Of a stretch of 64,000 bases of DNA, positions 7,152 through 64,000 are shown in pieces (the first letter of the stretch is position 1; the number at the start of each line of letters is the position of its first letter). The translations under genes were made by a program, and so were the position numbers. The DNA is from Polymyxa betae A26-41 (lineage: Eukaryota; Protista; Endomyxa: Phytomyxea): positions 83,552 through 147,551 of the forward strand of contig RBZT01000215.1 of NCBI GenBank assembly GCA_003693705.1, in the 5' to 3' direction. The notes beneath the pieces are model-generated. The model saw only the letters and a list, made by a program, of their open reading frames with translations, was not told the origin of the DNA and made no database searches.

Positions 7152-9836
7152 ATGGAGCATGGCGATCTTCGGTTTCGTTGGAGATCCGCCGGCCGCGCTG
7201 ATGGCATTGCTGCCGTATACGCTGGCAGCCATACTGTCACCTACTCCCTTCTACGATCATATGTCGACGAAGTCGCTTCCTATCTGGCACCATATTCCGG
7301 TTGCATCGCCATAGCGTATGATCGCTCTCTTGAAGCCCTCATTACAGCCCTAGCATGTTTACAATGCGACAATATTTGGTTCACGCCTATCACTGATCGT
7401 TGCGACGACGTCCTACGCGAGACCGACCCGATCTTAGTCGTCGCACCTGCTGATTTCTTTGTTCCCAATTCGTATACACGGGCTACTATCGAATTCATAG
7501 ACGACCAAGTCCTGATCGTTTCCGACCCGATTACCAAACAATTTGCTGCGAATGACGATCGATGTTGCTGCTTGTTTACATCGGGATCCGGCAGTGTCCC
7601 GAAACGCGCCATCATCCGCTGGACGGCTCTCTCCAATCGATTACGCTGGATGTGGACGACCTACCCGTTTCAACCCGGGTCACGTCTTGCATGGACGACC
7701 TCTATCACGTTCGTCGATTCGCTCTGGCAGATATTCGGCGCCGTACTGACCGGTGCCACAGTGGTTATTATTCCAGCGACTACCTGCCGTGATCTGCGTC
7801 TTCTGAATCGGACGATCATCGATCTAAAAGTGACCCATCTTGTATCGATACCGAGCGTTGCTCGTGGTCTGGTCTCCGGCTGCTGGTCGGACCCAGCACA
7901 ACGTCCCGTCGATCTGCAGCAGATTGTGTGCAGTGGTGAACCGTTAGAGACGACCTTGGCCATACAGCTGCGCTGTCTGTTCCCTTCCACCATCTTATTG
8001 AACTTGTACGGATGCACTGAAGCCATGGGCGACTCCCTGGTTTTCGAATGGTCGCGCTCCTCGATCGTCAATTGGACAGAACCCATCTGCCCTATCGGAT
8101 ATCCGATCCCAGGCAATACCATCACTTTCGACACTGACAACCAGATCGTGATTTCGGGCCAACAGGTCTGTGCTGGCCCAGTCGCAACAGGGGATATCGG
8201 GCGGTGTGATGGCAAGGGCCTGTATCACTATGTAGGACGTGCGAATCGTTGCATCAAACGTAATGGTCAATGGGTCTCTCTAGACCAAATCGAATCGCGT
8301 TTGCATAGCCATGGGCGGGTATGCCAGGCCGTCGTCGTCCACGAGAACCACGACGTTCTGGTCGGGGTCGTGCACGCCCCGAGCATGACGACGGCCGAGC
8401 TACGCGCTTACTGTGCCACGACGCTGCGACCTTTCGAGATCCCGGACCAATGGATCGTGGTGGGAGGCGCCTTGCCTCGGACACCCAGCTGGAAGCCCGA
8501 TATCCCGAAGATCTGCCAGATGGTGTCGGTGTCGGCGGATCCCCGACATCGGGCGAGTACGGTCGCCATCCTCGGCGACGTGCTTTGCAAAACGCTGGGC
8601 GTTGATGCAATCGGGGAGCACGACCCGATCTTGGACCGATACGGGCTGGATTCGCTACGGGCTACGTTGGCGTTCGGCGTCATCTGTCAGCGGCTGGGAT
8701 TGGATTCCGCCCTTTTGCGTCCTGCACATCTGGCCACATTCCCGACGTTAGCCGCGCTCGCAACGTTTGCCGAGACGCAGATGAAGGCATCTCCGCTGCC
8801 CAGAAAGCGACATAAGCCGAGCCGTGATATTGCAGGCGCTGCGAAATTGGTGGCGTTTTGGTCTGTCGATACCGGCTCATGTGTGGATACTGGCCCAGTC
8901 CTCCTATCCGACTCGCTATTGGTTGCAGTTTCGCATTCGGGTGCGGTCGTGGCGATCGCTCTGCATTCCGGCTTCGTCATCTTTACCAATACGTTGCCAT
9001 CGCGAATCGAAACGTCACCGATGATCTTCAGGAATCGGATCGTGGTCTGCTGTCGAAATTCGACTGTTTATGGATTGGACAGGGAAGATGGTGCCGTACG
9101 TTGGCAGGTCGTACTGCCCGACCAGGTTCGTGCCGTTCCAGTCGCCATCGATGATCGTCGTCTCGCGCTATCTTGCTATTCTGGTTCACTCTGTATCGTA
9201 TCTATATCTGATGACGAAGTGGCTGTGTCTGAGGAAATTGATGGAAAGGGCCCCTTGAGATCGGCACCAGCTTTCGATCAAGCTTCAGACATGCTCGTGA
9301 TTGCGTCACTGAAAGGAATCGTCTATGGATACAGTCTTGCTACTTCGGAGCATTGCTGGTCGTATCCTGTCGGATGCCCTGTGTTTGCAGACCCCACCTT
9401 ATCGGGTGATCATGTTTATATATTAACTGCCCGTGGTGACGTCTTCTGCCTGTGTTTAAGAGATGGCCGGCCGATCTCGTATATCTTTCTAGATGCACAA
9501 ATATTCGCCACGCCGACTATTTCTAACGACCTGATTTTAATCGCTACCCAAAATAGGGGCCTGTTCTGTTATAGTCTATCTCTGAAAGAATGTCATTGGG
9601 TCTGGCACCCTTACGGTGTCCAGTATTGTTCGCCCGCGGTTGTTCTTGATTGTCTAATCTATATTTGTTCCACGTCTGGCCGAATCGAAGTGTTGCGCTT
9701 AAGCAAGACGGTACCCGAATTGCTGACCTTCTACCAGCTATCAGATGAATCGTTCGCTACCCCGGTTGTTCACGATGACTTTTTATTGATCGGATGTCGT
9801 GATGATCATATCCATTGTTTGAGATTACAATCATGA
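7152..9836 (+). CDS. AASDH: AASDH/ACSF4-like NRPS-type protein: adenylation domain, phosphopantetheine carrier and PQQ-type beta-propeller; intronless
   Basis: Adenylation motifs LFTSGSGSVPK, NLYGCTE, ATGDIGR, GRANRCIKRNG, LPRTPSWKPD; carrier motif GLDSL (about 8643-8657); propeller repeats beginning 'WSVDTGSCVDTGP' and ending 'IGCRDDHIHCL'. Confidence 0.85.
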   Translation: MEHGDLRFRWRSAGRADGIAAVYAGSHTVTYSLLRSYVDEVASYLAPYSGCIAIAYDRSLEALITALACLQCDNIWFTPITDRCDDVLRETDPILVVAPADFFVPNSYTRATIEFIDDQVLIVSDPITKQFAANDDRCCCLFTSGSGSVPKRAIIRWTALSNRLRWMWTTYPFQPGSRLAWTTSITFVDSLWQIFGAVLTGATVVIIPATTCRDLRLLNRTIIDLKVTHLVSIPSVARGLVSGCWSDPAQRPVDLQQIVCSGEPLETTLAIQLRCLFPSTILLNLYGCTEAMGDSLVFEWSRSSIVNWTEPICPIGYPIPGNTITFDTDNQIVISGQQVCAGPVATGDIGRCDGKGLYHYVGRANRCIKRNGQWVSLDQIESRLHSHGRVCQAVVVHENHDVLVGVVHAPSMTTAELRAYCATTLRPFEIPDQWIVVGGALPRTPSWKPDIPKICQMVSVSADPRHRASTVAILGDVLCKTLGVDAIGEHDPILDRYGLDSLRATLAFGVICQRLGLDSALLRPAHLATFPTLAALATFAETQMKASPLPRKRHKPSRDIAGAAKLVAFWSVDTGSCVDTGPVLLSDSLLVAVSHSGAVVAIALHSGFVIFTNTLPSRIETSPMIFRNRIVVCCRNSTVYGLDREDGAVRWQVVLPDQVRAVPVAIDDRRLALSCYSGSLCIVSISDDEVAVSEEIDGKGPLRSAPAFDQASDMLVIASLKGIVYGYSLATSEHCWSYPVGCPVFADPTLSGDHVYILTARGDVFCLCLRDGRPISYIFLDAQIFATPTISNDLILIATQNRGLFCYSLSLKECHWVWHPYGVQYCSPAVVLDCLIYICSTSGRIEVLRLSKTVPELLTFYQLSDESFATPVVHDDFLLIGCRDDHIHCLRLQS

Positions 9837-26496: not shown

Positions 26497-28163
26497 ATGA
26501 AGAAATTTTTCCAGCGACGCCCGACGTTCTCGTCGTCGTCGGCGCCGCCGTCGCCGGCCCCAGCAGCCGCCGCCCCCGCTGACGTCAATGCGGCCGTTGG
26601 GACGGTGCCGGCCACCCCGACCAAACCCATCCAGGACGACGAATTGACACTGTTCAAAGCGCGCGTGTCTGGATTCGCTTCAGGTGATTGACTGGACGCC
26701 ACCCGTACTGGCCCACCCGTGGGCACCTGGAGTGACGAACTCATTGAATGGCAGCGCAGACCGACAGATCTGGATTCGATTGACGCCGAAGCGACTCTAT
26801 CAATCGGACGGGGTCGTGTACGACCTACTACAGCTGCATACGATCTCCGACGATCCGGTCCAAGGCCAAGCTGTGATTGTGCATTGGTTTCGGTCTAGGT
26901 CCAATACCAAACTGATCGGGAATAAGGTGGGTTTCCACTCCCGGTACTAGCTAGGGTTCTAGGTTTGGGACAGGTGAAAGGCGAAATGCTGAAATCGGTG
27001 ACGGAGGCTCGTGACATGATCGTTATCCAGCGATATGTATTCGAATCTGAAGCCGATCATCAGACGATGGTGTTGCTGTTGGATGATCTGACCAGGACCC
27101 GATGGCAGGCGTTATGTGAGCATCGGGTGATCACAGCCCCGGAGCTCTATCAAGCTCACACTGCCGTCATTAAAGTCAATCGCAAAGGACACTGCCAGGA
27201 GCGTATGCTGGTTCTGTCTAACCTCTGGCTCTATAACATCCAATATCATACTGACCCAATCGCTATCAAACAGTGTAAGGTTAGTGAAGTTCATTTTATG
27301 TAGCACTTGCGTGCAATTTATGTATGCGCACTTTTGCAATTAATTTGTTTGCGTACGCAGTTTTACAAATTCACTGTGGCCGTTTCAAAAATTGCGAACG
27401 AGTTTTGGAACTGGGCGTTTTGCTGACGCCGTTTAAGTGGGCGATCCCGCTTCAGGCCATTACTGAACTGCAGCTGGATATCCTGCAGCAAACGCTATCC
27501 ATGACATTAGTGATCGATGAGGTAACCATGACGAAATTGATGGACCAGTACCACCGCATGTCGCGCGCGGATCTGCCCAAATCCCTGCATCAGTTCTGTT
27601 TCTATTCGGTCGCGAGCCAGCAGGCTTTCGTCACGCAGCTTCGTCTTTTACGTCGAGATCAGATCGTCATAAAATGCTCGCAGCCTTATCTTGATGAGGT
27701 TGGTCTGCTTGTAGTTCATGTTTGTTGGTTGTTAAATGGCGTGATTCAGATGGAGCATCTGGGGAGGTTTCGGGCCACGATCCAGCACGGCTATTTGGTG
27801 AAACATCGCAAGCATAATACTACGATGCCACATCGACGATATGTACGTCTGACAGATTCCGGCATGATCGCATGGTCTCAGGAGCCGAATTCGGCCAAGG
27901 TGCTGTCGGGTAAGGCGCTCTCAATCCGGCGCTGCTTCAACCTGATTATGCTCGCAGGTGAGATTCGGTCTTCGCCGGGAAATAAATTCGATGAGAAGAT
28001 GTTGTCGTTCACGATCGTGACAACTTCCAAGACATTGCATTTTGTTGCCGAATCGCTGGATGATTTCCGCGCTTGGAAGCAGGCCTTGGAGACGGTCATG
28101 CAACGACATCAAAATCGAGTTCATGTACAGCTTTCATCTTCAAACAAAGTACAATTTCTGTAG
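26497..28163 (+). CDS. Protein with multiple PH-like domains (myosin-I TH1-like PH segment plus C-terminal PH), multi-exon
   Basis: 'AVIKVNRKGHCQERMLVLSNLWLYNI' is TH1/PH-like. The C-terminal 'QHGYLVKH...HRRYVRL...SFTIVTTSKTLHFVAESLDDFRAWKQAL' is a canonical PH domain. Confidence 0.7.
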
Positions 28164-45679: not shown

Positions 45680-45783
45680 TGACCTTTTGTGTAATGTTAC
45701 CCAAGTGACCTTTTGTGTAATGTTACCCAAGTGACCTTTTGTGTAATGTTACCCAAGTGACCTTTTGTGTAATGTTACCCAAG
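45680..45783. repeat. Perfect tandem repeat, 26-bp unit TGACCTTTTGTGTAATGTTACCCAAG x4
   Basis: Four identical head-to-tail copies starting at 45680, 45706, 45732 and 45758. Confidence 0.97.
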
Positions 45784-49409: not shown

Positions 49410-51673
49410 ATGACCTTGGAAGATTGGCGCCGTTCTATTTCCGCTGCCGGGACGATTGCATCAGTTCCTAACTAGTTCGTTTATCTCCAAACCCCAACCC
49501 TGGATGCCGCCCTCAAATCCTCTCAGCAGTATTCGTATGACATACGAATTCTGTATTGAAGGCATCACTTGTGCAAGGGAGGGGGATGCAACACGATCCC
49601 TTCGTCTGTTCAATGACGCTCTCCTGATAACACCCACGAGCTCAGCCGCCCATCTCTGTATCGGTCTGCGATATCTAGCTGAAGGAATGGCTCGTGATGC
49701 ATTACATCATTTCAATCAAGGTTTGGAGGTTGCATCTACTCCATACTGTCGTAGTCGTCTATTACGATGTCGTGCTCTTCTGCATCATTCCACACGAGAT
49801 TATGACGACGCCCTGGCGGATTTCGACGCCGCTCTGGTCCTGGACCCGGATTTCGCCGACGCCTACTACCTGCGAGGTCTGGTCTCGTACGACCTGAAAC
49901 GATTCGACAAATGTGTTGACGATATGACCAATGCCATTAAGCTATCAGATCCATCAGCTTCAGCAGCTGCTTATATGAATCGTGGTAATGCTTATACAGA
50001 GCTGGGTCGTTATACATCTGCTATTCGTGATCTTACAATGGCTATTGAATATGATACTCGTACATCTGTCATTTATTATAATCGTGCCAATGTATATTGT
50101 CTAACAAGAGATTTGCATCTGGCTCTGGCTGATTATACCAAATCTATTGAACTGGATCCGTATCATGCAAGTGCATACTTCAATCGTGGCAATACCTATC
50201 ATGAACTTGGTGAGTAGTGTGTTTTCCATTCAGTTTCTTCTAGGGTTTAGGGTTTCCTGATCCATGCTGTATATTGACTTTCTATTAGGACAATATCAAC
50301 TGGCTATTGCTGATTTCACCAATGCCATCGCCTTAGATCCAGCTGATGCAGCTCGATTTTTAGAATCACGTGGATGTTCATACTGTCGTCTGGGCCAGGT
50401 TGAATCCGCCTACGATGACTTCTCCAAAGCTCTTGGATTACGTCCAGATTCATCAACTGTTTACCTGAATCGGTCCACGGTTTTATTCCGTCTTGGTCGA
50501 TACAAGGAAGCTCTACATGATCTAAACAGCTGCTTGGTATTAAATCAGACCTGTGCTATGGCTTATACTAAGCGAGCTGATATTCACGTTCGATTCAAGA
50601 AATATGAGAAAGCAGCTCAAGATTTCACAACCGCTCTGGAACTCAATCCGGATGATGCCTACTCTTTGTATATGCGAGGTCGCTGCCGCCTGAAACTGGG
50701 CCAGCACGCCCAGGCGATCAGCGATTTCACGACCGTGATTCGGGTGGAGCCCACGTTCGTGCGTGCTTATTTGGAGCGTGCAGGAGCGTATTCATCGAAA
50801 TCGGTGCAGGAGTATCGTCTAGCAATTGACGATTATACGAAAGCGTTGGAGTTGAACCCGGATGATGCTGATGCATATGTTTCTAGAGCTAAGGCGGCTC
50901 AAGCTTTAAATCAGCAATGCCGAGCTATTCGAGATTGTGATGAGGCCCTGAAACTGGCTCCAGACAATGTTGACGCCATGGCCATGCGTGCCAAATGTTA
51001 TGCTGAATTCGGCGCCTTTGATCAAGCTCTACATTCGATTAATTCTGCTCTGCGACGATTACCAGAATCAGCACTTCTCTTAGCGTGTCGAGCTGATATT
51101 TACATGTCGCTTGGACGTCCTGATCTGGCTCTTGATGATTATGGTGAGGTTGTCGCTCTCTCTCCTGAATCCAATGCTGCCATCTCTGGCGTCGTTTTAG
51201 CACGACGCGCCCTCGGCCAAAACTCGATCGGCGCCCAGTTTGACGCTATTGAGTGGCATTTGCAAAAAGCCAGACGTCTATCGCTGTCGATCCCGAACCG
51301 AGAACGATTGGCGCGTGCTTTGCTGAGTCTGCGCCTGGACCAGTACGACGTGGTTCTGAAAGAGATCGATACGGCCCTGGAGGTTGAGACTGCTGAGGTT
51401 CGAGAGCATTTGTTGGAGAGCAGATCTATGATACAAGTACATCAGAGCAGCAAAGCAAGACAGATATTAGGATTAGGATTAGATGGAGTTGTAACTAGAT
51501 CATGGCAGATGGGAGCTCAACATCATACAAGATCTGATAGTCTTCGATCGGCTGTATTCAGTTCGGAACCGAAATCTGCTAATCGACGTCTTGTTGCACA
51601 TATGCAATGGAGAAGTAATCTTCGAAGAAGTATCTCTTCATTGCTCTCACGAAGTCGACATCCTCCATTGTAA
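49410..51673 (+). CDS. Tetratricopeptide-repeat protein (many TPRs); intron 50210-50288; start uncertain (49410 or 49504)
   Basis: Repeated 'AY.NRG..Y..LG.Y..AI.D.T.AIELDP' units across ORFs 49456-50217 and 50264-51673. Confidence 0.88.
50241..50255 (+). repeat. Intronic telomere-like repeat TAGGGTTTAGGGTTT
   Basis: Lies inside TPR-gene intron 50210-50288. Confidence 0.8.
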
Positions 51674-52050: not shown

Positions 52051-53614
52051 ATGGATTCCACGCAATCGTCCAATGTGGAGAGCCATCAAGCTGCCGACGC
52101 AAATATCATTGCATGTCAGAGCAGACAGTATCGATTTCGTTGGATAATCGTATTACTGTTCGATATTGTCTCCTTCGTTAATGCAATATTATGGATTTCG
52201 TTCACGCCCGTCAATTCTTATGCTCAAGCGTAATCCAGCACTTTTCCTTGATGTTCCCAATTTACAAATGATATAGGTACTATGGAGTCTCGGCTGCAAG
52301 CATAGATCTATTTAGCACCATGTTTATGATATTGTGAGAAGAGTAATGCGACTATGTCAATCGTGGTAAATTTCGTACAGATTCCTTCCCGGTCTGATCC
52401 TGTGTGCGTTTTCCACCCACAGATATGGATCAAAAATTACTGTAAGATTTCCGAATATTTTGATCATACTACGAGCTGATCAGATTTGCAGTGTGTTTCT
52501 GCATCTGCTCTGAATTTTGTTGCTGCGCTGCTGCGATATTCAAGTACACTGGATGATAAACGAGCTCGTCCTGGAGGTTATGGCATTGCCTTATGTGGGC
52601 AGATACTCGCTAGTTTGGCCCAGCCGATTTCCATCTCACTACCAGGACGAATAGCTACTGTTTGGTTCTCTGATACTCAACGGAACATTGCCATTGTTCT
52701 ATTATCGCTCAGCAATTTTCTGGGTATTGCTGTCGGCCAGATTCTACCCGGAATCTTCGTCGATGCTGAATCAGGCTTTCCAAACTTACAGCTCGCCGTA
52801 CTCATCTTGGCGACTATCTCTTTTCTAGGGTGCCTTCTAATGTTTAGAGAAGCCCCTCCAACGCCACCCTCTTCACACGCTGCAGATCGCTTGGAGCAGG
52901 AGAAAACGAACAATTTCGTTGGACATCTATCCTCCAACACTCGTCTTCTGTTTCAAAAAAGAAGTTTCTTAGCGTTATCAGTTGGTTTTGGTTTTGGTCT
53001 TGGCGTATTCAATGTATTATTAACCAAGATCGAAGTTATTGTATTCCCTTTTAGTCCAGAAGATGCAGGAATATTTGGGGCTGTCTGTATGATATCTGGT
53101 TTTCTGGGCTCAGGTATGGCTAATAGCGTTTATGATGGTCCACAACCAGATCGTCTGAAGGTTTTCTGCAGGCATATTCGGAGCAACAATGGACGCCACA
53201 CTTGCACATCACCGGATTTTACGAATTTGTACTTTTACGAGTCTAATTCTCTTAACGCTCCTATTTGTCTCTTTGAAACTGAACGGATCGTTCGCGGTTG
53301 TATGCCTCGTATTCGGTGCATTGGGTTTCTTCCTTCTACCGCTGATGCCAATTTGCATCGAATGTGCTGCATTATGTACATATCCTGTACCGGAAGAGAT
53401 GTCAACTGGAGCCTTAGTGCTATTTGGCAATGTCTTAGGCTTTCTTGGAACGCTGATAACTAACGATTATTCATCAGAAAGTCTCATATCTGCAGTTTCT
53501 GTCGGCAATCTCATACTGTCGTTAGCGTATATTATCGCTGCCATTGCAATGCTGTTCTTTCAGAGTGAAACATCAGTTCGTCTTTCAAAACCAATTGCGA
53601 CAGAGCTCGAGTAG
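52051..53614 (+). CDS. MFS transporter, FLVCR/SLC49 family, multi-exon
   Basis: YRFRWIIV..F..NAILWISFTP, GQILASLAQP....PGRIATVWF..QRNIA, FREAPPTPPS, ECAALCTYPVPEEMSTG. Confidence 0.88.
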
Positions 53615-53684
53615 TGCATGTTGATTAGTTTGAACTATTTATTCAGAAATCTTGTCTACCAAGATGCCGCATCGCTAATGACGA

Positions 53685-54479
53685 TTAAACAGACCCAGTC
53701 AGCGGGTAGCGAGCTGCTTCTAGTTCAGGTACTGGAATATCAATATCTGGAAATACTCGGACAGCTCTGGGCAGTTCATGCTCTTGTATGATTTGATCAT
53801 GGAAATAAATACGTCTCAGGCGACAATTAGCAAAGACTCGGACTCGAATTGTGTGCCGAAGATTAGTACCAAACAGAAGTAAGCACAACGTCTGCAAGTC
53901 CAGTATGATGCAATTCCAACCGGGGACAAGATGCATTGGGATCGTGGCTAAGTTGTCCTTACACCTTGAGAAGCAAACTTAGAGAGCTGCTGTAATGTGA
54001 CAGCAACGAATACCTTGCTAAAGACTGGGCAGACGATGAACGTATTGTTCTTTTAATGCCACTGCTATCTTCAATCTCGATCTCGAACGCCACGAACTTG
54101 TTCAGATTCTTCAAGTGCAACGTGACATAAGGAAACGGTGTGCCAATAATCTTGGATTCGTCTGGGAACGACATAGCAACCTTGTAGAATGTATCGCAGG
54201 TCAGCTCGATAACTTCGCTCTTTAGCTGGAGATCTTCGACAATGATCATCTCCGATAATGCAGTATCGGCAACTATGCAAGAATGAGAAATAAATCGGGC
54301 AAATACAATAGGTCGTCAGACTTGCCTTCCGATTCCCAACCATCGATATCGAATTCTGGCTGCAGCCCAAACGGCAAAATGGAGAACACATGATCAACCA
54401 TTGAAAAGAAAGCCTGACTACTCTGGGAGATGAGTACTGACGAATCGATCTCATACAGCTTCAGTAAGATTTCCATCAT
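53685..54479 (-). CDS. Divergent CFAP20/BUG22 (DUF667) family protein, multi-exon, with a GC-AG intron 54273-54325
   Basis: LHLKNLNKFVAFEIEIED..GIKRTIRSS, IPMHLVPGWNCIILDL, RVRVFANCRLRRIYFHD...ELP. Confidence 0.8.
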
Positions 54480-56112
54480 TTTGAGCAACCACAAGAATAT
54501 AGCTGAAACTGATTAAGAACTGTATTAAAATAATCCACTGCTGGCAGACTGGATGATTTGAAACAGGGCGGAACCAACGACAACGAAGACGAAAAATGCA
54601 ATCATCACAGGCCCAAGACTGCTGTTGCTTTCTGCTGATTTCGCCTAACACCATACTCACTATGAAATCAACTTGAACGTCACTGACAACACCGACCTTC
54701 GACCTGTTGTTAATCAGACCCCTCTTATTGACATTCTGATTGAAGAGTTCGGCAGCCTTTTTCCGGGGGTTAGCCTGTAAATCTTGGACGTGAGTGGCTG
54801 ACGCCCTGACGCGACATCGAACCTAACTCACCATGACGACGATGTCAAGCCAATGAGATAACGGAACAGGACAGAGATGAGTGAGACGTAACAATGATCG
54901 ACTGCTTGTGACGGCGGCACGTCGGTTCCGATCAACAGTCAAGAGACGAGGCCGCGCTCAACATTCGCGAATCATTTCCGTTACCGTGAATACCGTCCCC
55001 ACTGTCAGAGGATAGGGTTTGTGGCCAGTGGGAGGCCCCGCTTTCTCACGCGTCGTCGTCATTTCGTACTATTGATGAGTCGATGGCTGTCGCCCTTGGA
55101 TGAGCATAGTCTAAATTAAGATCCAATTCACAAATTGGACCGAAAACGATTATGATCGCCGCAAACGCAACGTTGTCATGATTGAAGAACCATATAAGCC
55201 AACAAAATGCTTGGGGAGTGTCTGCTGTTGCGAGATGGACATGCAGAGATCAGACACGAATGACTTGCTTATTGGATTCAAACTATAAGAGCAGCAGAAA
55301 GAACAACAGTAAATTTGATAGATAGATAATTAGAGATGTTTTTCAGTGGTACGTTGAGGAATTGGTCTCATTCTGGATCTTGTTTTAGGCGATACCTTTA
55401 TCTGATGCAGATAGAGCAGCAGAAAGCTGTCATAATTGCCAACATGAATAACAACCAACACAATTACATTTGAATATCAATGTATCAAAATGATGAACTC
55501 ATCAAGAATCCTCGAAATCAGCCCCTTATGTAGTCATGGTCCGTAAGGCAGGAAGGAGCCAGCAATGGATCCCAGCTCCCCGCATGTGTATGCGACCGTA
55601 CTGGCCCGCGCCAACCGAAAATCGGTTTTGTCTTGCACTGCTGTGATTCAGTGATTACGATTATAGAATCGATTGAGACCCATTGGTATTATGTTCCTTG
55701 CTATCATATCAATACAGCATTTGGAGGAATTTCTACCTAATGTACAGTGCCGACAGTCGTCCCTCCCATTATCATTGATGTCATTGTATTATATCTGATA
55801 TAACCAGCTCCATTTATATAGACACAATTGACGGCATCACATTTGAGATATCCATATAGGATGGAGCTCTGTTAATTGGTATTATACCCTTCATCATCTG
55901 TATTTATCTACATGTGTGCCAATAAAACAACCAAACTGCCGATTAGCTAAGTGCAAGTTATACTCAGTAATAGTTTCCGATTCAGTTATGGTAGAATTTG
56001 TCTAAGATGAAGAAGGTGAGAAGGTGACCAGATCGATCTATGTGTACTAGACATAATTTTCGTATTTCTGACTATGTATGATATATAATCAGCAGTAAAT
56101 TAGTATTAGGTC

Positions 56113-59100
56113 ATGTCATCAACAACAATTCCATTCAAACCACATCCGAAATCTCAGCAAGAATTTGAGTTTCGTGATGGCCAGCGTCCTCTAGCATTAG
56201 ATTGGTTAGATGAAGTTGGTAAATTCTATGAGAATCGTGCTCAAGATCCCCCTATACGTAAGACATCACGTATGTGCATCTGTATCTGCATGTCTCCATA
56301 TCATTATAATACTGATGAATAGGTCCTGGTACTAATGATGTATTAGAGATGATGATATTAGAGAATGCAGCAGATCTAGCACCTAATCTATCACATCATA
56401 GACGTATTATACGTCATGAAACTATCATACTATATCTCAAACTTGCTGCTGTATTCGATCGCACATTCGCCGTACAGGCCCAGTTCGAGGAGATCACCTC
56501 CCCAGATCGTATGATTATTGATATGGCGAGATCTCATGATATAATGAGTGTTGTGTGTATAGAGGAGAGATGGGTTATACCATCATTAATGAGATCAATT
56601 AGTAGCTGTATAACCCCAATGATTATTGGATTTGTAACAGGTCTAGAAGCCCATTATTTACAGGCTAATCTACATGTTAGAGATGTAGCTGTATCTGCAG
56701 TTACTGCACTTATACAATCTAATCGAAATATATTCCTACATAATGATCATTGTATGGATGTATGAAGTAACTAGATACTAATTGTAACTAACATATTGAT
56801 ATAGTGGCATCAATATGGAATTTAACCTTATTACTTGATGTTAATGATTGCCATCTTCCATCAATATTACTACCTGGAACACGTCTACCTATTATTATAT
56901 CATTACAATCATTAACAGATGTTATATGTCAAGGACATAGATCTCTAGTACGTGAACTTCTACGTCGGCTGCTGACCATGCCCGGGGCCAGTACGCCGGA
57001 GCGTGACGCCATTCGGGTCACGGTCCAGGGCTTGTTCCGCATTCTGGTTGATATCACATTCGGACATGGTACTGCTGATCGTAATGAAGGTGAAGCTGCT
57101 GCCAATAATGGAACACGACCTACACTAGCAGATGCATATGAGGCTATACAAGCTCTTGTCTCGGGACGTACCGAGGCCCAGTACGACCAGATTCACTGGG
57201 CGACTGCGACGCTGACCCGGATTGTGCGGCAGCAACAGTCGACGTTGCATCCGTCAACGAAATGGTCTGGAGATTGTTTAGGGTTTTAGGGTTTGGTTGT
57301 GACTTGTGTGTATAGGTTCTTAGATCAGTTAGTAATGCATCTATCACCTACATCTCCATCATTAGTTAGATATGGTATATGTCTAATAGTATCAGCTGTA
57401 ATAGAGGTATGGCCTGAATCAATAGATATCATACCAGATCTATATTCGAATATTATTAATTCATGTAATGATACATCATTAATAATACGAGATGTATCAC
57501 TATCTATTCTATATTCAATAGCTACATATCGCAATCTCCTATCATTAGTTGATCTTATACAAGCATATGATAGTATACGTCATGGATCTTGTTATATTAA
57601 TATACAGAATAATCATACAGGACATCAACAACCTGTTAGATCACATCCCGTTATATTATCTGATATTCTAGCTGAAGCTGTTATGTATGGACCTAATCTA
57701 TCATCATATCAACTGACATCATTACTGGCATCATCACGTTACATGTCGCCACAGATCCAACTCGACACGTTACATCTCGTCTGTCATTGGGCTAACAGAG
57801 CCCAGGATCTCGACCCACATCTGTAAGTGTGTGTTACAACGCATTCTAAACCCTAAAACCCTATGTTTAGTGTCCAACAATTATTACCAATGTTACAAAC
57901 ACGTCAATCTAATATTCAAATAGCGATCTTATCTATATTTCGTGCACTTAATCGTGCATTACCTACAATGTCCCGATCATTATTACGTAGCTCAGAGACA
58001 TATTTCCGTCAGTTATTATCTGGTCATGATCATACAGATACAGATGCAGATAATAGTATGATATTAGTATTAGATGTATTAGCTATGTTCCCATTACATG
58101 ATCTACCTGCTATACGTATACAGAATCTATTATCTCATCATTTAGGTCCATGTGCATTCTCTAGATCATGTCAATTACGTCATGCATTATATAATGTATT
58201 ATCGGGATCACGTAGATTCTGGATAACAAATGATCTATCATATTCGGCATTATGTATATTATTAATAGCGATTGGAGATGAAGATATTGATGCTGTTCAA
58301 TCAGCTGTTCGAGGGTTTCAGGATGTTAGTTCTGGACCTCAATGGAAGAGTGCTGCATCTACATCAACATTTCATTCATTATTAATTCGATCTGGTATTG
58401 CATTAAGACATAGAGATCAAGGTGTGATTATCGCTATTGCTTAATATTGGGTTATTAACTATCATATAGCTGTACGTATTAGTGCATATGATCATATAGT
58501 CAATGCTATATGTAATTGGACAGATCAGGATCCATTATATGGAATACTGGTCCACCTGACCCGATCTGGATCCATTGGCGATCTAGTACGACAACGTGTT
58601 GATGGATTATTAAGTGAATCTGGATCTGTTAATATATCATTATCATCAACATCCTTACAAGTATTAGATTCATGTTCACATAGTATATATTGGTATATAT
58701 TATTATTTAGTAAGTTGAATATATATATCAATCAGATACCGGCTGAGAGAGCTCTACGTTCTCTATTAACATCCACTGTATGTACTGCTGGCTGAAACCC
58801 TAAACCCTAACTAACACTTAGACAGCATGGTTATATTCGAGCTGCTGCTGTTGATACAACAATCAAGACCTGTTTCCGTGGTAGTATAGTTCATGGACGT
58901 ATTCTAGATCAAACTATAGCAGATGCTGTTGATGCATTGATTGTATCTGAAAATGAGGCCGTACAAGACAGCTGGATCTGCGTCCTGGATGGGCTGGTAC
59001 GGTATCAGATACCGGGTCTAAATCCCTGGCTTACAGCCCGATTATTACCAACATTAACAGATTTATATTCTGATAGACCATCTTCTGTATTACGTCATCT

Positions 59101-62100
59101 AGTTCATTTCCTTGATACATTAATTACCAATTATATCGCTAATACGTACGTTCCATCTTAGATTTTTCTCACAATCTTCTCTTTCTGTTTTCCAGTCAAT
59201 CGCTTCTGATTATTTTCGAGAACATTGCGCTTGTTCTGATGTTATATAATAGGGATATAATGGAATCAGCAGATGCAGTAATATCATCATGTATTGAGAG
59301 ATTACGTAATACAACCCGTCATCATCTAATAGCGAATATATCTGCTGCTGTACGTACATCATTAGAACAATTATATGGAATATTAGCAGAATGTGCTGCA
59401 CTATTACCTATTGCACATTTTGATGGAGAATCATATAGCGAGTTTCTATTAACAGATGTTAATGCTATGATTAATGATATTGGAGATCATGGTGGTGATC
59501 CACTTATTACTAATCTTACACAATATCAAAGACAATTGATTGGACGGGTTTCTATATCTGGACTTGGATCATGTAGACATACTACACTCATTCCAAAGGT
59601 AACATCAACACTGTCGTATATGTTACTGTTATCTGACATGATATAGATACTAACAACACTGTCATTGTTACTTTCCCATACTGATTATCAAGTACGTCGT
59701 GATGCTATTAGTAGTATATATCAGATACGTAATAATATGGGAGAACATGAGACTGAATTTCAATGGGATCTTAGTTCAGCTATATGGCAATCATTATCAT
59801 TATTATGTGATATAGATCTTGATGTTCGTGTACAATTAGAACGTGGATTATCACATGGACCTACATTATTATATATGTATATACAAGCTATACAAGCACC
59901 AGATCTATCGAAACAGATACAGCAAGCTATGTCTGTTCAGATTGATAGGGAGCGGTTCACCAGTCCAGACCAGTATGATTGCGGGTAAGCTGGCTCTGTT
60001 AGGGTTTTAGGGTTTCATATCAATGTATCTCTGTATATATCAGGATGATAGCATTATTGGCAGATTCTAATATTAGATCTACAATTGATGATGATTATGA
60101 GAAATATGCTGAGAAAGTCATGCAGATCCCACGTATGGATTCAGCATTTCTTGATAGGGTAAAACATTACATATTGGTCATGTTCCGCCGTACTGACCCG
60201 CTGTGTATGATAGGTCCGAGCTATTACTGCTAAATATATTCTATCTGGTCATGAACAGATTCATGCTGCTATACGTAATCTATGTAGATTTCTATCAGGT
60301 GGTACTACTGCTGGTAGTGCAGCTATTATTATCTCTCAGGTAACATAATGGATATAGGAGATGTAACATGTCATATTGATGTGTTATGTAGTTACTAGGT
60401 CTAGTATCAGATAATGCTGATATTCATGATGATATAATAGATCTGATATGTCGTCATATGGAATATAGTGTTACTGGTATTATACAGGATAAGATATATG
60501 GATTATGTGTAGCATTAACACAGATATCTACATATAGACCTATATTAACTGTACAACGGGTTGTATCATGGTCATGTTCTGCGTATGTAACATCATATAT
60601 GTCACTGTATATGTTACTGACCCTACATTTCTGATAGTAATCGTCATATTGATGTTAATGATGGATTAGTATATGCATTACATTCTGTTATAATACCAGT
60701 TATACATGATATAGATATAACACAATCTATTACATCTATACAGACATTCACATTATTGAATAGTCTACGTAGGGTATTACAGTCCACTGTATGTACTGAG
60801 CTGGAACCCTAAAACCCTAACCCTAAACTACTTGTATAGACTGCCACTAAATCGACTCAGAAATTAGCTCTAGATCTACATCTAGCTCTGACATCATTAT
60901 CAGATACAGGTCCAGTACTTATTACTAATCTATTAGATTTAATAGAAGCATTGCATGATCCAGATCTTCAAGATCAACTTATCCAAGCATTAAAACCGCA
61001 GTTTGCATCTGTAGATCAACATGATCCAGTTATACAAACCCTATTAGAACGTATTGATGAATATGAACAGAATGGGACTGTACAGGATCAGCAACGTGCG
61101 TTAACGTTACTCAGTATCGTATCGGATTCATTAGTTGATAACGATACATCATTGATGGGACGTGTATTAGCGTTACTGGCTGATACTGATCTACATGTAC
61201 GACGTCGTGCTATGAGGATGGTAACATATATATGTGGATGTATGTGTAACATGATACTGATATAGTATGTAACAGATAGTAAGTGGCTCATTAAGTGCGA
61301 GTATACAATCTCGTCTATGTCCAGTATTAGAACAACAACATAAACGTAATATTGATAGATCTATACATGGTAGATCACAATCTATTATACAAACTGCTGA
61401 CAAATTACAAGCTAATATGGCATTTCGATTACGTACATCATTCTTACGTATTAATGATTATTCAGTATTAAGTAATAATCATATATCAGCCACACATATG
61501 ACATCTAGTAACATATCTGATGACGAATCACATGGAACATCTACATCTACCATATCAGATGATCCACTTAATGTTACATATCTCTCATCAGAACGTTACA
61601 GTTGCATAGCTGCACGTTACCATAGTAATCTGATATTCAATCAAGATAAGATTGTTGATGATGCATCTACTGGTGAATATACAACACCACAACATATTAA
61701 TGCCATTGATCAGCAGGCCAGTACGGCCACATCAGCCAATACTGCTACTGGTGCTGCTACTACTGCTACATCCGCAGCAGGACGTACTGGCCCCGGCGGC
61801 GATGGGGATGGACGGCATACTATCGACGAGCAGTCCGAAGATCAGATATCGCTGGATGATGATGATGATCAGGCCGTACTGGTCCCTGTGCCGCCATCTG
61901 GAGCCGCATCCAGGCCATCGTTTCAACGTCGAACTACGGTGCAGTCCGTGACGGAGTCCGGGATGTCTCCCCGCGCACTCCGTAAGTTATCGTCCACGTC
62001 ATCAACATCGGGAGGTAATAGTCGGCGGACATCGTCATCTACATTATTTAATGGCGGGAATGGATCACGAGCTAGATTACGACGAGAATCAGCTCGAGGT

Positions 62101-63457
62101 GCTGCATCATCTATTAATGTATTAGATACTGGAGATAATAATGATCTATCTAATGATCATATTGCACTTAATGAACATGTTATTAATGATATGTCTGCTG
62201 AACAGATACAGACTATGTTAACTGCTACTGTTCAATCTACATCACATAATGCCAGTATGTTATCACACATGTTACATTCCTAACACTCACCTAATTATGT
62301 TACTCTATAGACTCACTATTGGATAAGCTGTTAGTAACATTAGAGGCGGATATACAATGCGATACAGGAGATGGATTACGTGCTGATATGAAATCACGCA
62401 TGCATTGTATTGGTGTATTAGTTAATCTAATAGCATCATTCAATCAATTAGATGATCGTGCTGAGACATCATTAGCACGATTACGTCGATTATGTTCATC
62501 ATTGCGACGGAGATGTATTAATCTACGTAATGATATTATTGATAAGATTGATGAAGATCTATTCTCTATAACTGGATTAAATCCCGTTATGATAGCTAAT
62601 CAATGTGATACAGATCGTTATGAATGTATGCAAGATTGTATACAGAGATCTATGATTGATATAGATTATAGACATGATCTTATCAAGCATGCATATAATA
62701 GACATATATCTATTGAATCAAATAATAGATATCTAAGTGCAATCGTTATATTTATTCAGGAGATTGTCAAGGGATTTGGACGTCTATATGCATATCTGAA
62801 TATAGAACAGGTCAGTGAATATCATGTTACAATGTGTCAGTCAACTGAGTAACATGAATATACAGATGACAACATTCTGTCATGGTATGGAATTTATGGT
62901 AGAAATCCTTACAGATGATCATGATGGTATACGTAAATCAAGTCGTGATGCATTACAACAGATTATAAGAGGACGTGAAGATGATCCACAGATCGAGTCA
63001 TTAGCTGCTCTATATGAGAAACTACTCCTGGGCCTGTACGATATCATCACCGATGATCTCAACGTCCAAGTTCTACGTCGCAAGAAGACCGATCTGTGCG
63101 CGGTTCTCGGTCTGCTTCTCCCTCAGGTAGATCATTGTGCAGGAGTCAGACGCGATCATTGACTCGATATCGTCCGTGTAGATTGCGAGCCATTCAGTTC
63201 AGGTCCGTGAGACATGCCTACGTCTGATTCTGTCCCTATGGGATGATCCCGACATACTGGTCCGCGATGTAGCTATTGATACAGTGCGGATCCTGGGTGC
63301 AGGACATCGTGTACCAGAGATTGATGCATTAATACGTCAGACAGGATCAGGTCCATCACAGCTTATGCAACATATTACAATTCGACTTAATAATGACACA
63401 TATGCTAGTAAGGAGAAGTTACAGAATCTTATGCAATGGCTCTTTAATAGAAGATAA
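56113..63457 (+). CDS. Very large (about 2100 aa) HEAT/ARM-like helical-repeat protein, 18 exons
   Basis: 17 GT-AG introns placed by eye keep one reading frame: 56270-56322, 56752-56804, 57265-57315, 57823-57870, 58422-58469, 58778-58825, 59146-59195, 59599-59646, 59985-60043, 60159-60213, 60340-60391, 60583-60637, 60789-60839, 61221-61275, 62255-62310, 62811-62865, 63127-63181. HEAT-like motifs LLADTDLHVRRRA, LLSHTDYQVRRDA, ILTDDHDGIRKSS, LWDDPDILVRDVA. TAA at 63455-63457. Confidence 0.75.
57277..57294 (+). repeat. Intronic telomere-like repeat TTTAGGGTTTTAGGGTTT
   Basis: Inside intron 57265-57315. Confidence 0.85.
57846..57863 (-). repeat. Intronic telomere-like repeat (C-strand on +: CTAAACCCTAAAACCCTA)
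   Basis: Inside intron 57823-57870. Confidence 0.85.
58795..58810 (-). repeat. Intronic telomere-like repeat (C-strand on +: AAACCCTAAACCCTAA)
   Basis: Inside intron 58778-58825. Confidence 0.85.
59999..60015 (+). repeat. Intronic telomere-like repeat TTAGGGTTTTAGGGTTT
   Basis: Inside intron 59985-60043. Confidence 0.85.
60805..60827 (-). repeat. Intronic telomere-like repeat (C-strand on +: AACCCTAAAACCCTAACCCTAAA)
   Basis: Inside intron 60789-60839. Confidence 0.85.
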
Positions 63458-63690
63458 ATACACGTCCACATACGGTCTGGTACGACCAGTACCTTTTGTC
63501 AGACGTAGAAACGTCTCATATATTTGATTAATCGTACCATAAGTCTGTTTAGGTTGTATAATCTGTAATCTATCTATCCGTCATTTATCAAAGGTTGATA
63601 TCGAACTGCAATGAGACTGACCAAATATCAGCAAATGTACTTGATAGAATATTTCAACAGACCGAAACAAATATGGAAGAAACTGATTGG

Positions 63691-63717
63691 TATTACTACG
63701 TAGATCACGTAGTAATA
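63691..63717. repeat. Perfect 11-bp inverted repeat TATTACTACGT-agatc-ACGTAGTAATA
   Basis: The arms are exact reverse complements; a third partial copy (TTACTACGT) follows at about 63720. Confidence 0.7.
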
Positions 63718-64000
63718 AATTACTACGTTTAACGTCTGCTTATACACAGAGACAGGTCGCCAAATGGTACAATAACAGCACACCAGACTGATATAAATCA
63801 GAACTCACTTTACAGATGGTTAACTGCAGATTCATATAAAAAGTATTGACATTGTTAGGGTTTTAACGAGCAGAGATCTACTATTGACAATCGTGATGAG
63901 ATACCGGTAGAGATATACAGATACATTATATGTTAGTTCTGGGATTTCATACAGTTTCAATCAGGTAATGATTCTTTATAGAAGATGACAATATTACGGA

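Follow-up and report, generated by a model that had tools for sequence, protein, structure and literature searches.

Depletion of AA/TT steps across an expressed, lysine-poor gene of Polymyxa betae and its possible origin in directional TT-to-AT mutation

The gene and its dinucleotide pattern

A 64,000-nucleotide stretch of the Polymyxa betae A26-41 genome (assembly GCA_003693705.1, contig RBZT01000215.1, positions 83,552 to 147,551 of the forward strand; referred to below as the window, from whose first letter all positions are counted) carries an 18-exon gene in which AA and TT dinucleotides are strongly avoided. The observed/expected ratio of AA/TT is 0.59 in this gene as compared with 1.09 in positions 1-45000, while TA (1.16 against 0.65) and AT (1.46 against 1.11) are raised over the background. 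The pattern index of the gene is 0.79, whereas overlapping 7.3-kb windows of positions 1-48000 give -0.24 ± 0.07, with a maximum of -0.09.

The spliced model agrees with the initial annotation of this DNA, which had read 18 exons and a frame of about 2100 amino acids (aa): there are 18 exons encoding 2127 aa. The gene is transcribed, as indicated by spliced contigs from two RNA studies (X3 and X5), which support GT..AG joints for at least 15 of the 17 introns (X3, X5 and X12 were taken as RNA sets from their splice joints). The acceptor of intron 2 is backed by a contig piece beginning at 56805; among the joints listed, intron 1 is a prediction, and the alignment with the orthologue described below is in frame through introns 1 and 2. 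The window has 44.9% GC, and introns are about 50 bp long. The encoded protein looks like a HEAT/ARM solenoid without a named family: its predicted structure is nearly all helix (predicted local distance difference test, pLDDT, 59), its Atlas neighbours are HEAT/ARM families with a low recognition score, the Pfam HEAT match is below the cut-off, and Foldseek matches of the predicted model to ARM proteins are weak (E 2e-4, template modelling score about 0.3).

Table 1. Coordinates of the gene, the surrounding domain and related features in the window
Feature	Position	Strand	Remarks
18-exon gene, 2127-aa predicted HEAT/ARM-type helical protein	56113-63457	+	Spliced RNA contigs, translation; P. 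brassicae orthologue known
Exons 1-6	56113-56257, 56323-56751, 56805-57264, 57316-57822, 57871-58421, 58470-58777	+	
Exons 7-12	58826-59145, 59253-59598, 59647-59984, 60044-60158, 60214-60339, 60392-60582	+	
Exons 13-18	60638-60788, 60840-61220, 61276-62254, 62311-62810, 62866-63126, 63182-63457	+	
Exon 1, conserved N-terminus	56113-56257	+	Pattern absent, index -0.14; 3 Lys among 48 aa
AA/TT-depleted, AT/TA-enriched domain	55650-64000	.	Left edge approximate; right edge beyond the window
GC-rich islands (four)	56963-57272, 58955-59040, 61711-62105, 63025-63319	.	Pooled GC 56%
Intron 3	57265-57315	+	Doubled telomere-type repeat, G strand on sense
Intron 4	57823-57870	+	Doubled telomere-type repeat, C strand on sense
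Intron 6	58778-58825	+	Doubled telomere-type repeat, C strand on sense
Intron 7	59146-59252	+	107 bp, about twice the others; ordinary T-rich tracts
Intron 9	59985-60043	+	Doubled telomere-type repeat, G strand on sense
Intron 13	60789-60839	+	Three telomere-type units, C strand on sense
Weaker echo: 5' exon of TPR gene and intron	49498-50290	+	Index 0.49; doubled telomere-type repeat at 50242

That the force behind the pattern acts locally and at the DNA level, as had been proposed, is well supported, since it is visible at synonymous sites, at codon junctions, in introns and on both strands. Fourfold-degenerate sites before T carry A in 190 of 230 cases (83%) and T in 10 (4%), while in the background A and T occupy 105 (29%) and 99 (27%) of 363 such sites. 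Codons of the NAT type make up 91-97% of those for Asn, His, Asp and Tyr; Phe, Lys, Glu and Gln, for which the AT-rich option would create TT or AA, are about half AT-ending (TTT in 20 of 42 Phe codons, AAA in 17 of 32 Lys codons). At codon junctions AA/TT arises 144 times, as compared with 377 ± 13 over 1000 synonymous shuffles; the corresponding background values are 492 and 520 ± 15. The gene's introns contain 125 AA/TT and 243 AT/TA steps, as compared with 133 and 113 in 15 other introns confirmed by RNA (p 8e-7); only TT steps are reduced there, and no loss of pyrimidines was seen before the intronic AG (Y 0.54 against 0.58, T 0.37 against 0.39).

A model of synonymous choice gives terms of -1.01 for AA/TT, +1.19 for AT, +0.52 for TA and -0.04 for CC/GG, the background AA/TT term being +0.01, and fitting the strands freely yields AA -1.10 and TT -1.02, in line with strand symmetry. 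The best single step term is AA/TT (Akaike information criterion, AIC, 3891, against 4282 for AT, 4181 for TA and 3959 for AT and TA together). With respect to triplets, TTT falls to 0.18 and CTT to 0.38 of the background, the YTT class being the rarest, and CTA and TAT rise 2.0-fold and 1.9-fold; the CT/AG step term is -0.3 to -0.6.

Runs of four or more A or T are indeed rare, as had been noted (3 in exons against 82.7 expected from 50 base shuffles, with 63 against 265 for runs of three or more). The broader claim of homopolymer avoidance does not hold, because G/C runs (56 against 71, and 7 against 14) are no rarer than in the background. The pattern had also been called gene-wide; it is strong through the gene, but it begins near 55.65 kb, exempts exon 1 and passes the stop codon, 3' of which the index is weaker (0.33). 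Weaker echoes appear at 49.5-50.2 kb (0.49), 48.2-49.3 kb (0.31), 19.2-19.7 kb (0.57) and 7.2-9.8 kb (0.19). Inside the GC-rich islands AA/TT is still 0.53, and CpG is 1.05, compared with 0.71 outside the islands and 1.07 in the background. Since the islands keep only the AA/TT deficit, two layers can be separated, namely step avoidance throughout and, outside them, a drift to AT accompanied by loss of CpG. CCAGTA, a GTACTGG-like word of the islands, occurs 17 times against 4.3 expected under a homogeneous model, an excess that is probably inflated by the island composition.

The abrupt compositional contrast with the neighbouring sequence could point to an artefact (homopolymer-collapsing errors) or to a horizontally acquired gene, yet both are hardly credible and are refuted by the contigs, the open frame and the collinear orthologue. 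The frame is open over 2127 codons, a DNA contig from set X2, possibly the source, crosses 53544-64000 with five differing letters and no gap, neither substitutions nor indels appear in the RNA contigs from the two studies, and the orthologue from Plasmodiophora brassicae is full-length. A short repeat common to other contigs lies at 53513-53650, at the end of a transporter-like gene, and represents a contig break point.

Known mutational systems were compared with the pattern. Fungal repeat-induced point mutation (RIP) depletes CpA/TpG with a gain of TpA, and the domain is similarly AT-rich and TpA-rich. RIP was rejected, since CA/TG is enriched (1.27 in the gene against 1.12 in the background), the gene is intact and expressed, and transitions alone cannot lift purine-pyrimidine alternation from 49% to 58-61%. 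CpG depletion of the kind left by the decay of 5-methylcytosine is found outside the GC-rich islands; as the whole cause this decay was rejected because a CG term alone brings no gain (AIC 4528 against 4526). Quasi-palindrome (template-switch) mutagenesis was rejected as well, perfect short palindromes being not enriched beyond the di- and trinucleotide content (z -1.1 to +1.4). Some excess of inverted and direct repeats with spacers was seen (z 2.5-7.5), but the gene is compositionally patchy.

AMT1-type N6-methyladenine (6mA) at ApT might favour this step along the whole gene body, which we regard as very unlikely. ApT is favoured in both systems: it has the strongest positive step term here, in 17 of 23 neighbouring genes it is mildly raised within the first 500 bp (p 0.035, with starts read by eye), and methylated genes are ApT-denser in some species (PMC12695648). 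AMT1-dependent 6mA is mainly placed after the transcription start and is linker-periodic (PMC12695648), whereas here the pattern covers 7.3 kb without clear periodicity, is led by AA/TT loss, reaches the 3' end and skips exon 1. ApT alone fits far worse than AA/TT avoidance, and a concentration of ApT downstream of the gene's start was not found (1.55 in the first 500 bp against 1.46 in the rest; exon 1 unaffected). TAT is elevated here, whereas it is lacking in methylated fungal genes, and 6mA is reported mostly not to shape composition (PMC12695648).

Protein composition and the Plasmodiophora brassicae orthologue

A HMMER search with exon 15 among 1.84 billion representatives gave one relative, whose cluster includes P. 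brassicae PBTT_00891 (XXQ30436.1; 2140 aa). This protein aligns end to end with that of P. betae at 43% identity over 2025 columns. The genome of P. brassicae has a GC content of 58-60% (PMC12903343) and that of Spongospora subterranea 45.7% (PMC12883290). If locus tags follow the first chromosome, the number of PBTT_00891, taken with the 2.10-Mb contig and about 416 genes per Mb (10,521 genes in 25.3 Mb), weakly suggests that the orthologue lies near a chromosome end.

The P. betae protein had been described as almost lysine-free, which is too strong: it has 32 Lys in 2127 aa (1.5%), as compared with 6.2% in the background (binomial p 6e-27; range over single background open reading frames, ORFs, 1.0 to 11.3%). 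The five segment counts of 0, 1, 1, 1 and 2 Lys were reproduced, although the segment ends run into intron DNA, and these segments are among the poorest of an uneven distribution, 11 Lys being located in exons 16-18. The normal Lys content of the neighbouring SPAG6 (6.2%) was confirmed, together with the reported enrichment over 16 background ORFs in Ile (9.4 against 5.4%), His (3.6 against 1.9%), Asp (7.8 against 5.7%), Ser (9.8 against 8.9%) and Tyr (2.6 against 1.8%). An AASDH-like single-ORF gene with AMP-binding, carrier and beta-propeller domains (7152-9836; 54% GC) has 1.8% Lys and a mild bias.

The DNA bias demonstrably co-varies with the amino-acid use of the gene: with the scale and AT shift fitted, step terms estimated at silent sites predict the amino-acid shift against the background (Spearman 0.75). 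For Lys they predict 3.2%, against 1.5% seen. Relative to the orthologue, Ala and Val are replaced by Ser, Thr and Ile, the forward and reverse swaps being 44 and 11 for Ala to Ser, 22 and 1 for Ala to Ile, and 45 and 13 for Val to Ile. From orthologue to gene, Ile increases from 3.9 to 9.4%, Asn from 2.3 to 4.2%, Tyr from 1.5 to 2.6% and Ser from 6.5 to 9.8%, and Ala falls from 16.5 to 7.2%, while Phe stays flat (2.1 and 2.0%; 46 and 42 residues). It is likely that the DNA pattern steers the protein towards isoleucine, serine and asparagine.

Regional context-dependent substitution bias is known from isochore-like domains, where the residues F, Y, M, I, N and K (FYMINK) shift against G, A, R and P (GARP). 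The gene resembles such domains in that a local DNA bias, visible at silent sites and in introns, shifts its amino-acid usage; between orthologue and gene GARP changes from 34.8 to 21.8% and FYMINK from 13.8 to 21.7%. It differs in that its axis is a dinucleotide step rather than GC content, in that the FYMINK members Lys and Phe are static, and in that the domain is gene-sized and includes GC-rich islands with the same step bias.

Equal lysine poverty of orthologues in distant taxa had been named in advance as the result that would speak against a DNA-level cause, and the one orthologue found is exactly as poor, with 33 Lys in 2140 aa (1.5%), 13 of them aligned with those of the gene. The proposal that the bias reshapes the protein thus stands for Ile, Ser, Asn, Tyr and His, and for Lys and Phe being flat despite the AT content, but not for the lysine poverty itself. 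Because the GC-rich orthologue shares it, the low Lys level is either older or independently reached, so that two readings remain: a Lys-poor ancestor, or separate Lys loss in both lineages. The shared poverty may itself be DNA-driven in both species.

A protein-level need for few lysines (e.g., for escape from ubiquitination), with the DNA pattern as a coincidence, would agree with equal Lys in two species of opposite base composition, and we consider it clearly unlikely. Just 13 of the 32-33 Lys align, Glu and Phe are also low, and the silent sites and introns are left unexplained. No more distant homologue that might share this need was found in word-index, full HMMER or metagenome searches. 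The word-index searches were weak, one having failed to return the 2140-aa query itself (the cluster representative is a 663-aa fragment); the metagenome scans gave no confirmed homologue (70 pattern matches unconfirmed; best tblastn E 0.26 among 10 loci), and there was none among solved structures.

A doubtful but serious possibility is an old property of this plasmodiophorid locus, namely purine-pyrimidine alternation expressed as GC/GT/AC in P. brassicae and as AT/TA here, with a DNA-driven scarcity of Lys, Glu and Phe in both; it is compatible with mutation as well as with selection. Both species share low K/(K+R) (0.18 in the gene and 0.16 in the orthologue against 0.50 in the background) and low E/(D+E) (0.30 and 0.32 against 0.53). 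The orthologue has 1.5% Lys against 3.8% predicted from the GC shift alone, step terms add 30 log units to its fit, and of the 75 residues obtained by reading through introns of P. brassicae, 53 have first two codon bases that alternate (p 2e-4). The read-through sample is only these 75 residues, and the alternation may equal a genome-wide habit of P. brassicae or a trait of the protein family.

Telomere-type introns and the source of the bias

The intron repeats of the gene are of the TTTTAGGG type, which is the telomere unit of P. brassicae (PMC6823432); in that species the repeat is restricted to chromosome ends, according to a review (PMC13746701). Doubled telomere-type repeats occur in 5 of the 17 introns of the gene and in none of the 15 other RNA-confirmed introns, and of all six doubled motifs of the window five belong to the gene and one to the TPR echo. 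All 14 testable introns (of 17), including the five with motifs, fall inside continuous P. brassicae frames, whose own ORF fragments are interrupted elsewhere; because of this, the intron positions appear to have turned over almost wholly, the direction (gain or loss) being unpolarised. Intron 7, the one intron of the gene that is free of the bias, contains 25 AA/TT against 18 AT/TA steps and three of the 11 stretches of at least four A or T in the gene, and it is likely that it holds a recent insertion that is not yet converted.

Short interstitial telomeric sequences are known at repaired breaks, and the intron motifs resemble them as short tracts in introns missing from the orthologue. They are distinguished by having 2-3 units, by occurring five times in one gene and by being without clear target-site duplication, although duplications may have been erased by age. 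DNA contigs of set X2 match the motifs at 50237, 57276, 58810 and 60016 and then continue into non-telomeric sequence, which implies that internal telomere motifs recur elsewhere in the genome.

We tentatively favour, at slightly less than an even chance, a locally raised context-dependent mutation of the 5' T of TT to A, which would strip AA/TT steps from both strands, AA being turned into AT on the opposite one. Superimposed on the A+T drift and CpG loss, it would direct the drift into Ile, Asn, Tyr, His and Ser codons and away from those of Lys and Phe, the tolerant helical-repeat protein presumably absorbing the changes. The motif introns, the intron turnover and the location of the P. brassicae repeats at chromosome ends, taken together, suggest a break-prone domain, and our best inference for the source of the bias is that such DNA is copied by error-prone repair synthesis; the same repair process would supply new introns with telomere repeats.

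The direction of the change is supported by role polarity: terms of -1.4 to -1.9 apply to the 5' T of TT and, as its mirror, to the 3' A of AA, and terms of -0.5 to -1.1 to the other two roles (p 2e-7 to 6e-9), a difference of about twofold on the log scale; this is the best among three two-way splits. NTT to NAT is the best single extra mutation term at fourfold sites (AIC 2151, against 2196 for T to G, 2243 for T to C and 2166 for an AA penalty). These two results favour directional mutation, since role-blind selection on step counts would not yield polarity. In addition, one allele creates AA/TT in each of the 12 strain differences within the gene, where 6.2 such cases would be expected (p 2e-4, post hoc), and in 5 of 5 in the DNA run alone (p 0.02). 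The nearest described signature is SBS17, with T>G at NTT and T>A/T>C at CTN, arising by uracil excision and translesion synthesis (bioRxiv 10.64898/2026.08.21.746158). As in SBS17, T is lost from TT and CT steps on both strands alike, the 5' T of TT being most affected, while here the change is germline and of gene-scale evolution, the CTN term is small and CTA is enriched. SBS17-type T>G as the main change was rejected, its fitted rate being 0-0.27 beside 39-42 for T>A.

Several observations weigh against the directional mutation and its link to the telomere-type introns. Once two or more terms are allowed, mutation models do no better than selection-type models and no worse (AIC 2107 against 2102-2110, and 2092 against 2094), so the equilibrium composition cannot choose between them. 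Splitting by strand or by codon position improves the fit as well, which makes polarity only part of the asymmetry, and the fitted TT>AT rate, about 40 times the baseline transversion, exceeds any process that we can name. Of the 12 strain differences, 7 come from one low-depth run and the alleles are unpolarised; outside the gene, 13 of 21 differences are AA/TT-forming against 9.4 expected (p 0.07). The background consists of 16 ORFs picked by hand from one window. Inside the gene the bias has no gradient with distance to the motifs (rho 0.02, p 0.90, 55 blocks), three of the weaker echoes are without a doubled motif, and no clear target-site duplication was found at any of the five motif introns (intron 4, p 0.008, uncorrected, 34 tests).

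Selection or biased gene conversion on DNA structure, purging A-tracts during the drift to 35% GC so as to keep packaging, possibly with a telomere-repeat-binding protein that organises the domain from the intronic motifs, appears rather unlikely to us. A-tracts are stiff and nucleosome-excluding. Structural selection is consistent with the equal fit of step-penalty models, with an extra AAA/TTT penalty (-1.06) beyond AA/TT, and with the depletion inside the GC-rich islands. The telomere motifs retain their T/A runs, which make up 4 of the 11 such stretches of at least four in the gene, and they lie in both orientations, as expected of double-strand binding sites. The role polarity argues against it; there is no 10-bp periodicity, the 198-bp peak is weak (power 4.8 for AT, 7.8 for GC) and within the background peaks, and selection would be required at about 2000 silent sites.

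A more general suggestion, which we hold to be unlikely, is that the gene represents a plasmodiophorid class in which short telomere repeats within introns label a chromatin or repair domain that follows a mutational rule of its own, with TT-to-AT change and purine-pyrimidine alternation. This rule would be old enough for P. brassicae to have it as well, in a GC-rich form, and it would breed introns, rewrite proteins and keep lysine, glutamate and phenylalanine scarce.

Regional composition bias usually concerns GC content or CpG decay, while the present case is a strand-symmetric dinucleotide rule in one expressed gene, which fixes 83% of the silent sites before T and redirects amino-acid change, its neighbours being without it. 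If mutational, the rule points to a local process of mutagenesis or repair that has yet to be described; if selective, it points to an unusually strong selection on DNA structure within coding sequence. In either case the amino-acid composition and phylogenetic signal of such genes follow the DNA, which should serve as a warning. A literature search, with most subscription papers and supplements outside its reach, returned no earlier description of the pattern.

Additional observations concern single introns and repeats. Intron 8 (59599-59646) resembles the start of the following exon (local alignment score 31, p 0.004, uncorrected, 34 tests), as though exonic sequence had been duplicated in tandem. 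Introns 6 and 13, both motif-bearing, have identical 16 bases over their 5' splice junctions (58772-58787 and 60783-60798), and introns 8 and 12 have 13 bases in common; common origin or conversion is possible. A telomere-type unit at 63855, 3' of the stop codon and in a place without an RNA contig, perhaps belongs to a minus-strand intron of a convergent gene. At 26952-26965 a degenerate doubled telomere-like word lies in a probable intron of a gene without overall bias (index -0.2), and a 26-base unit is present in four exact copies at 45680-45783.

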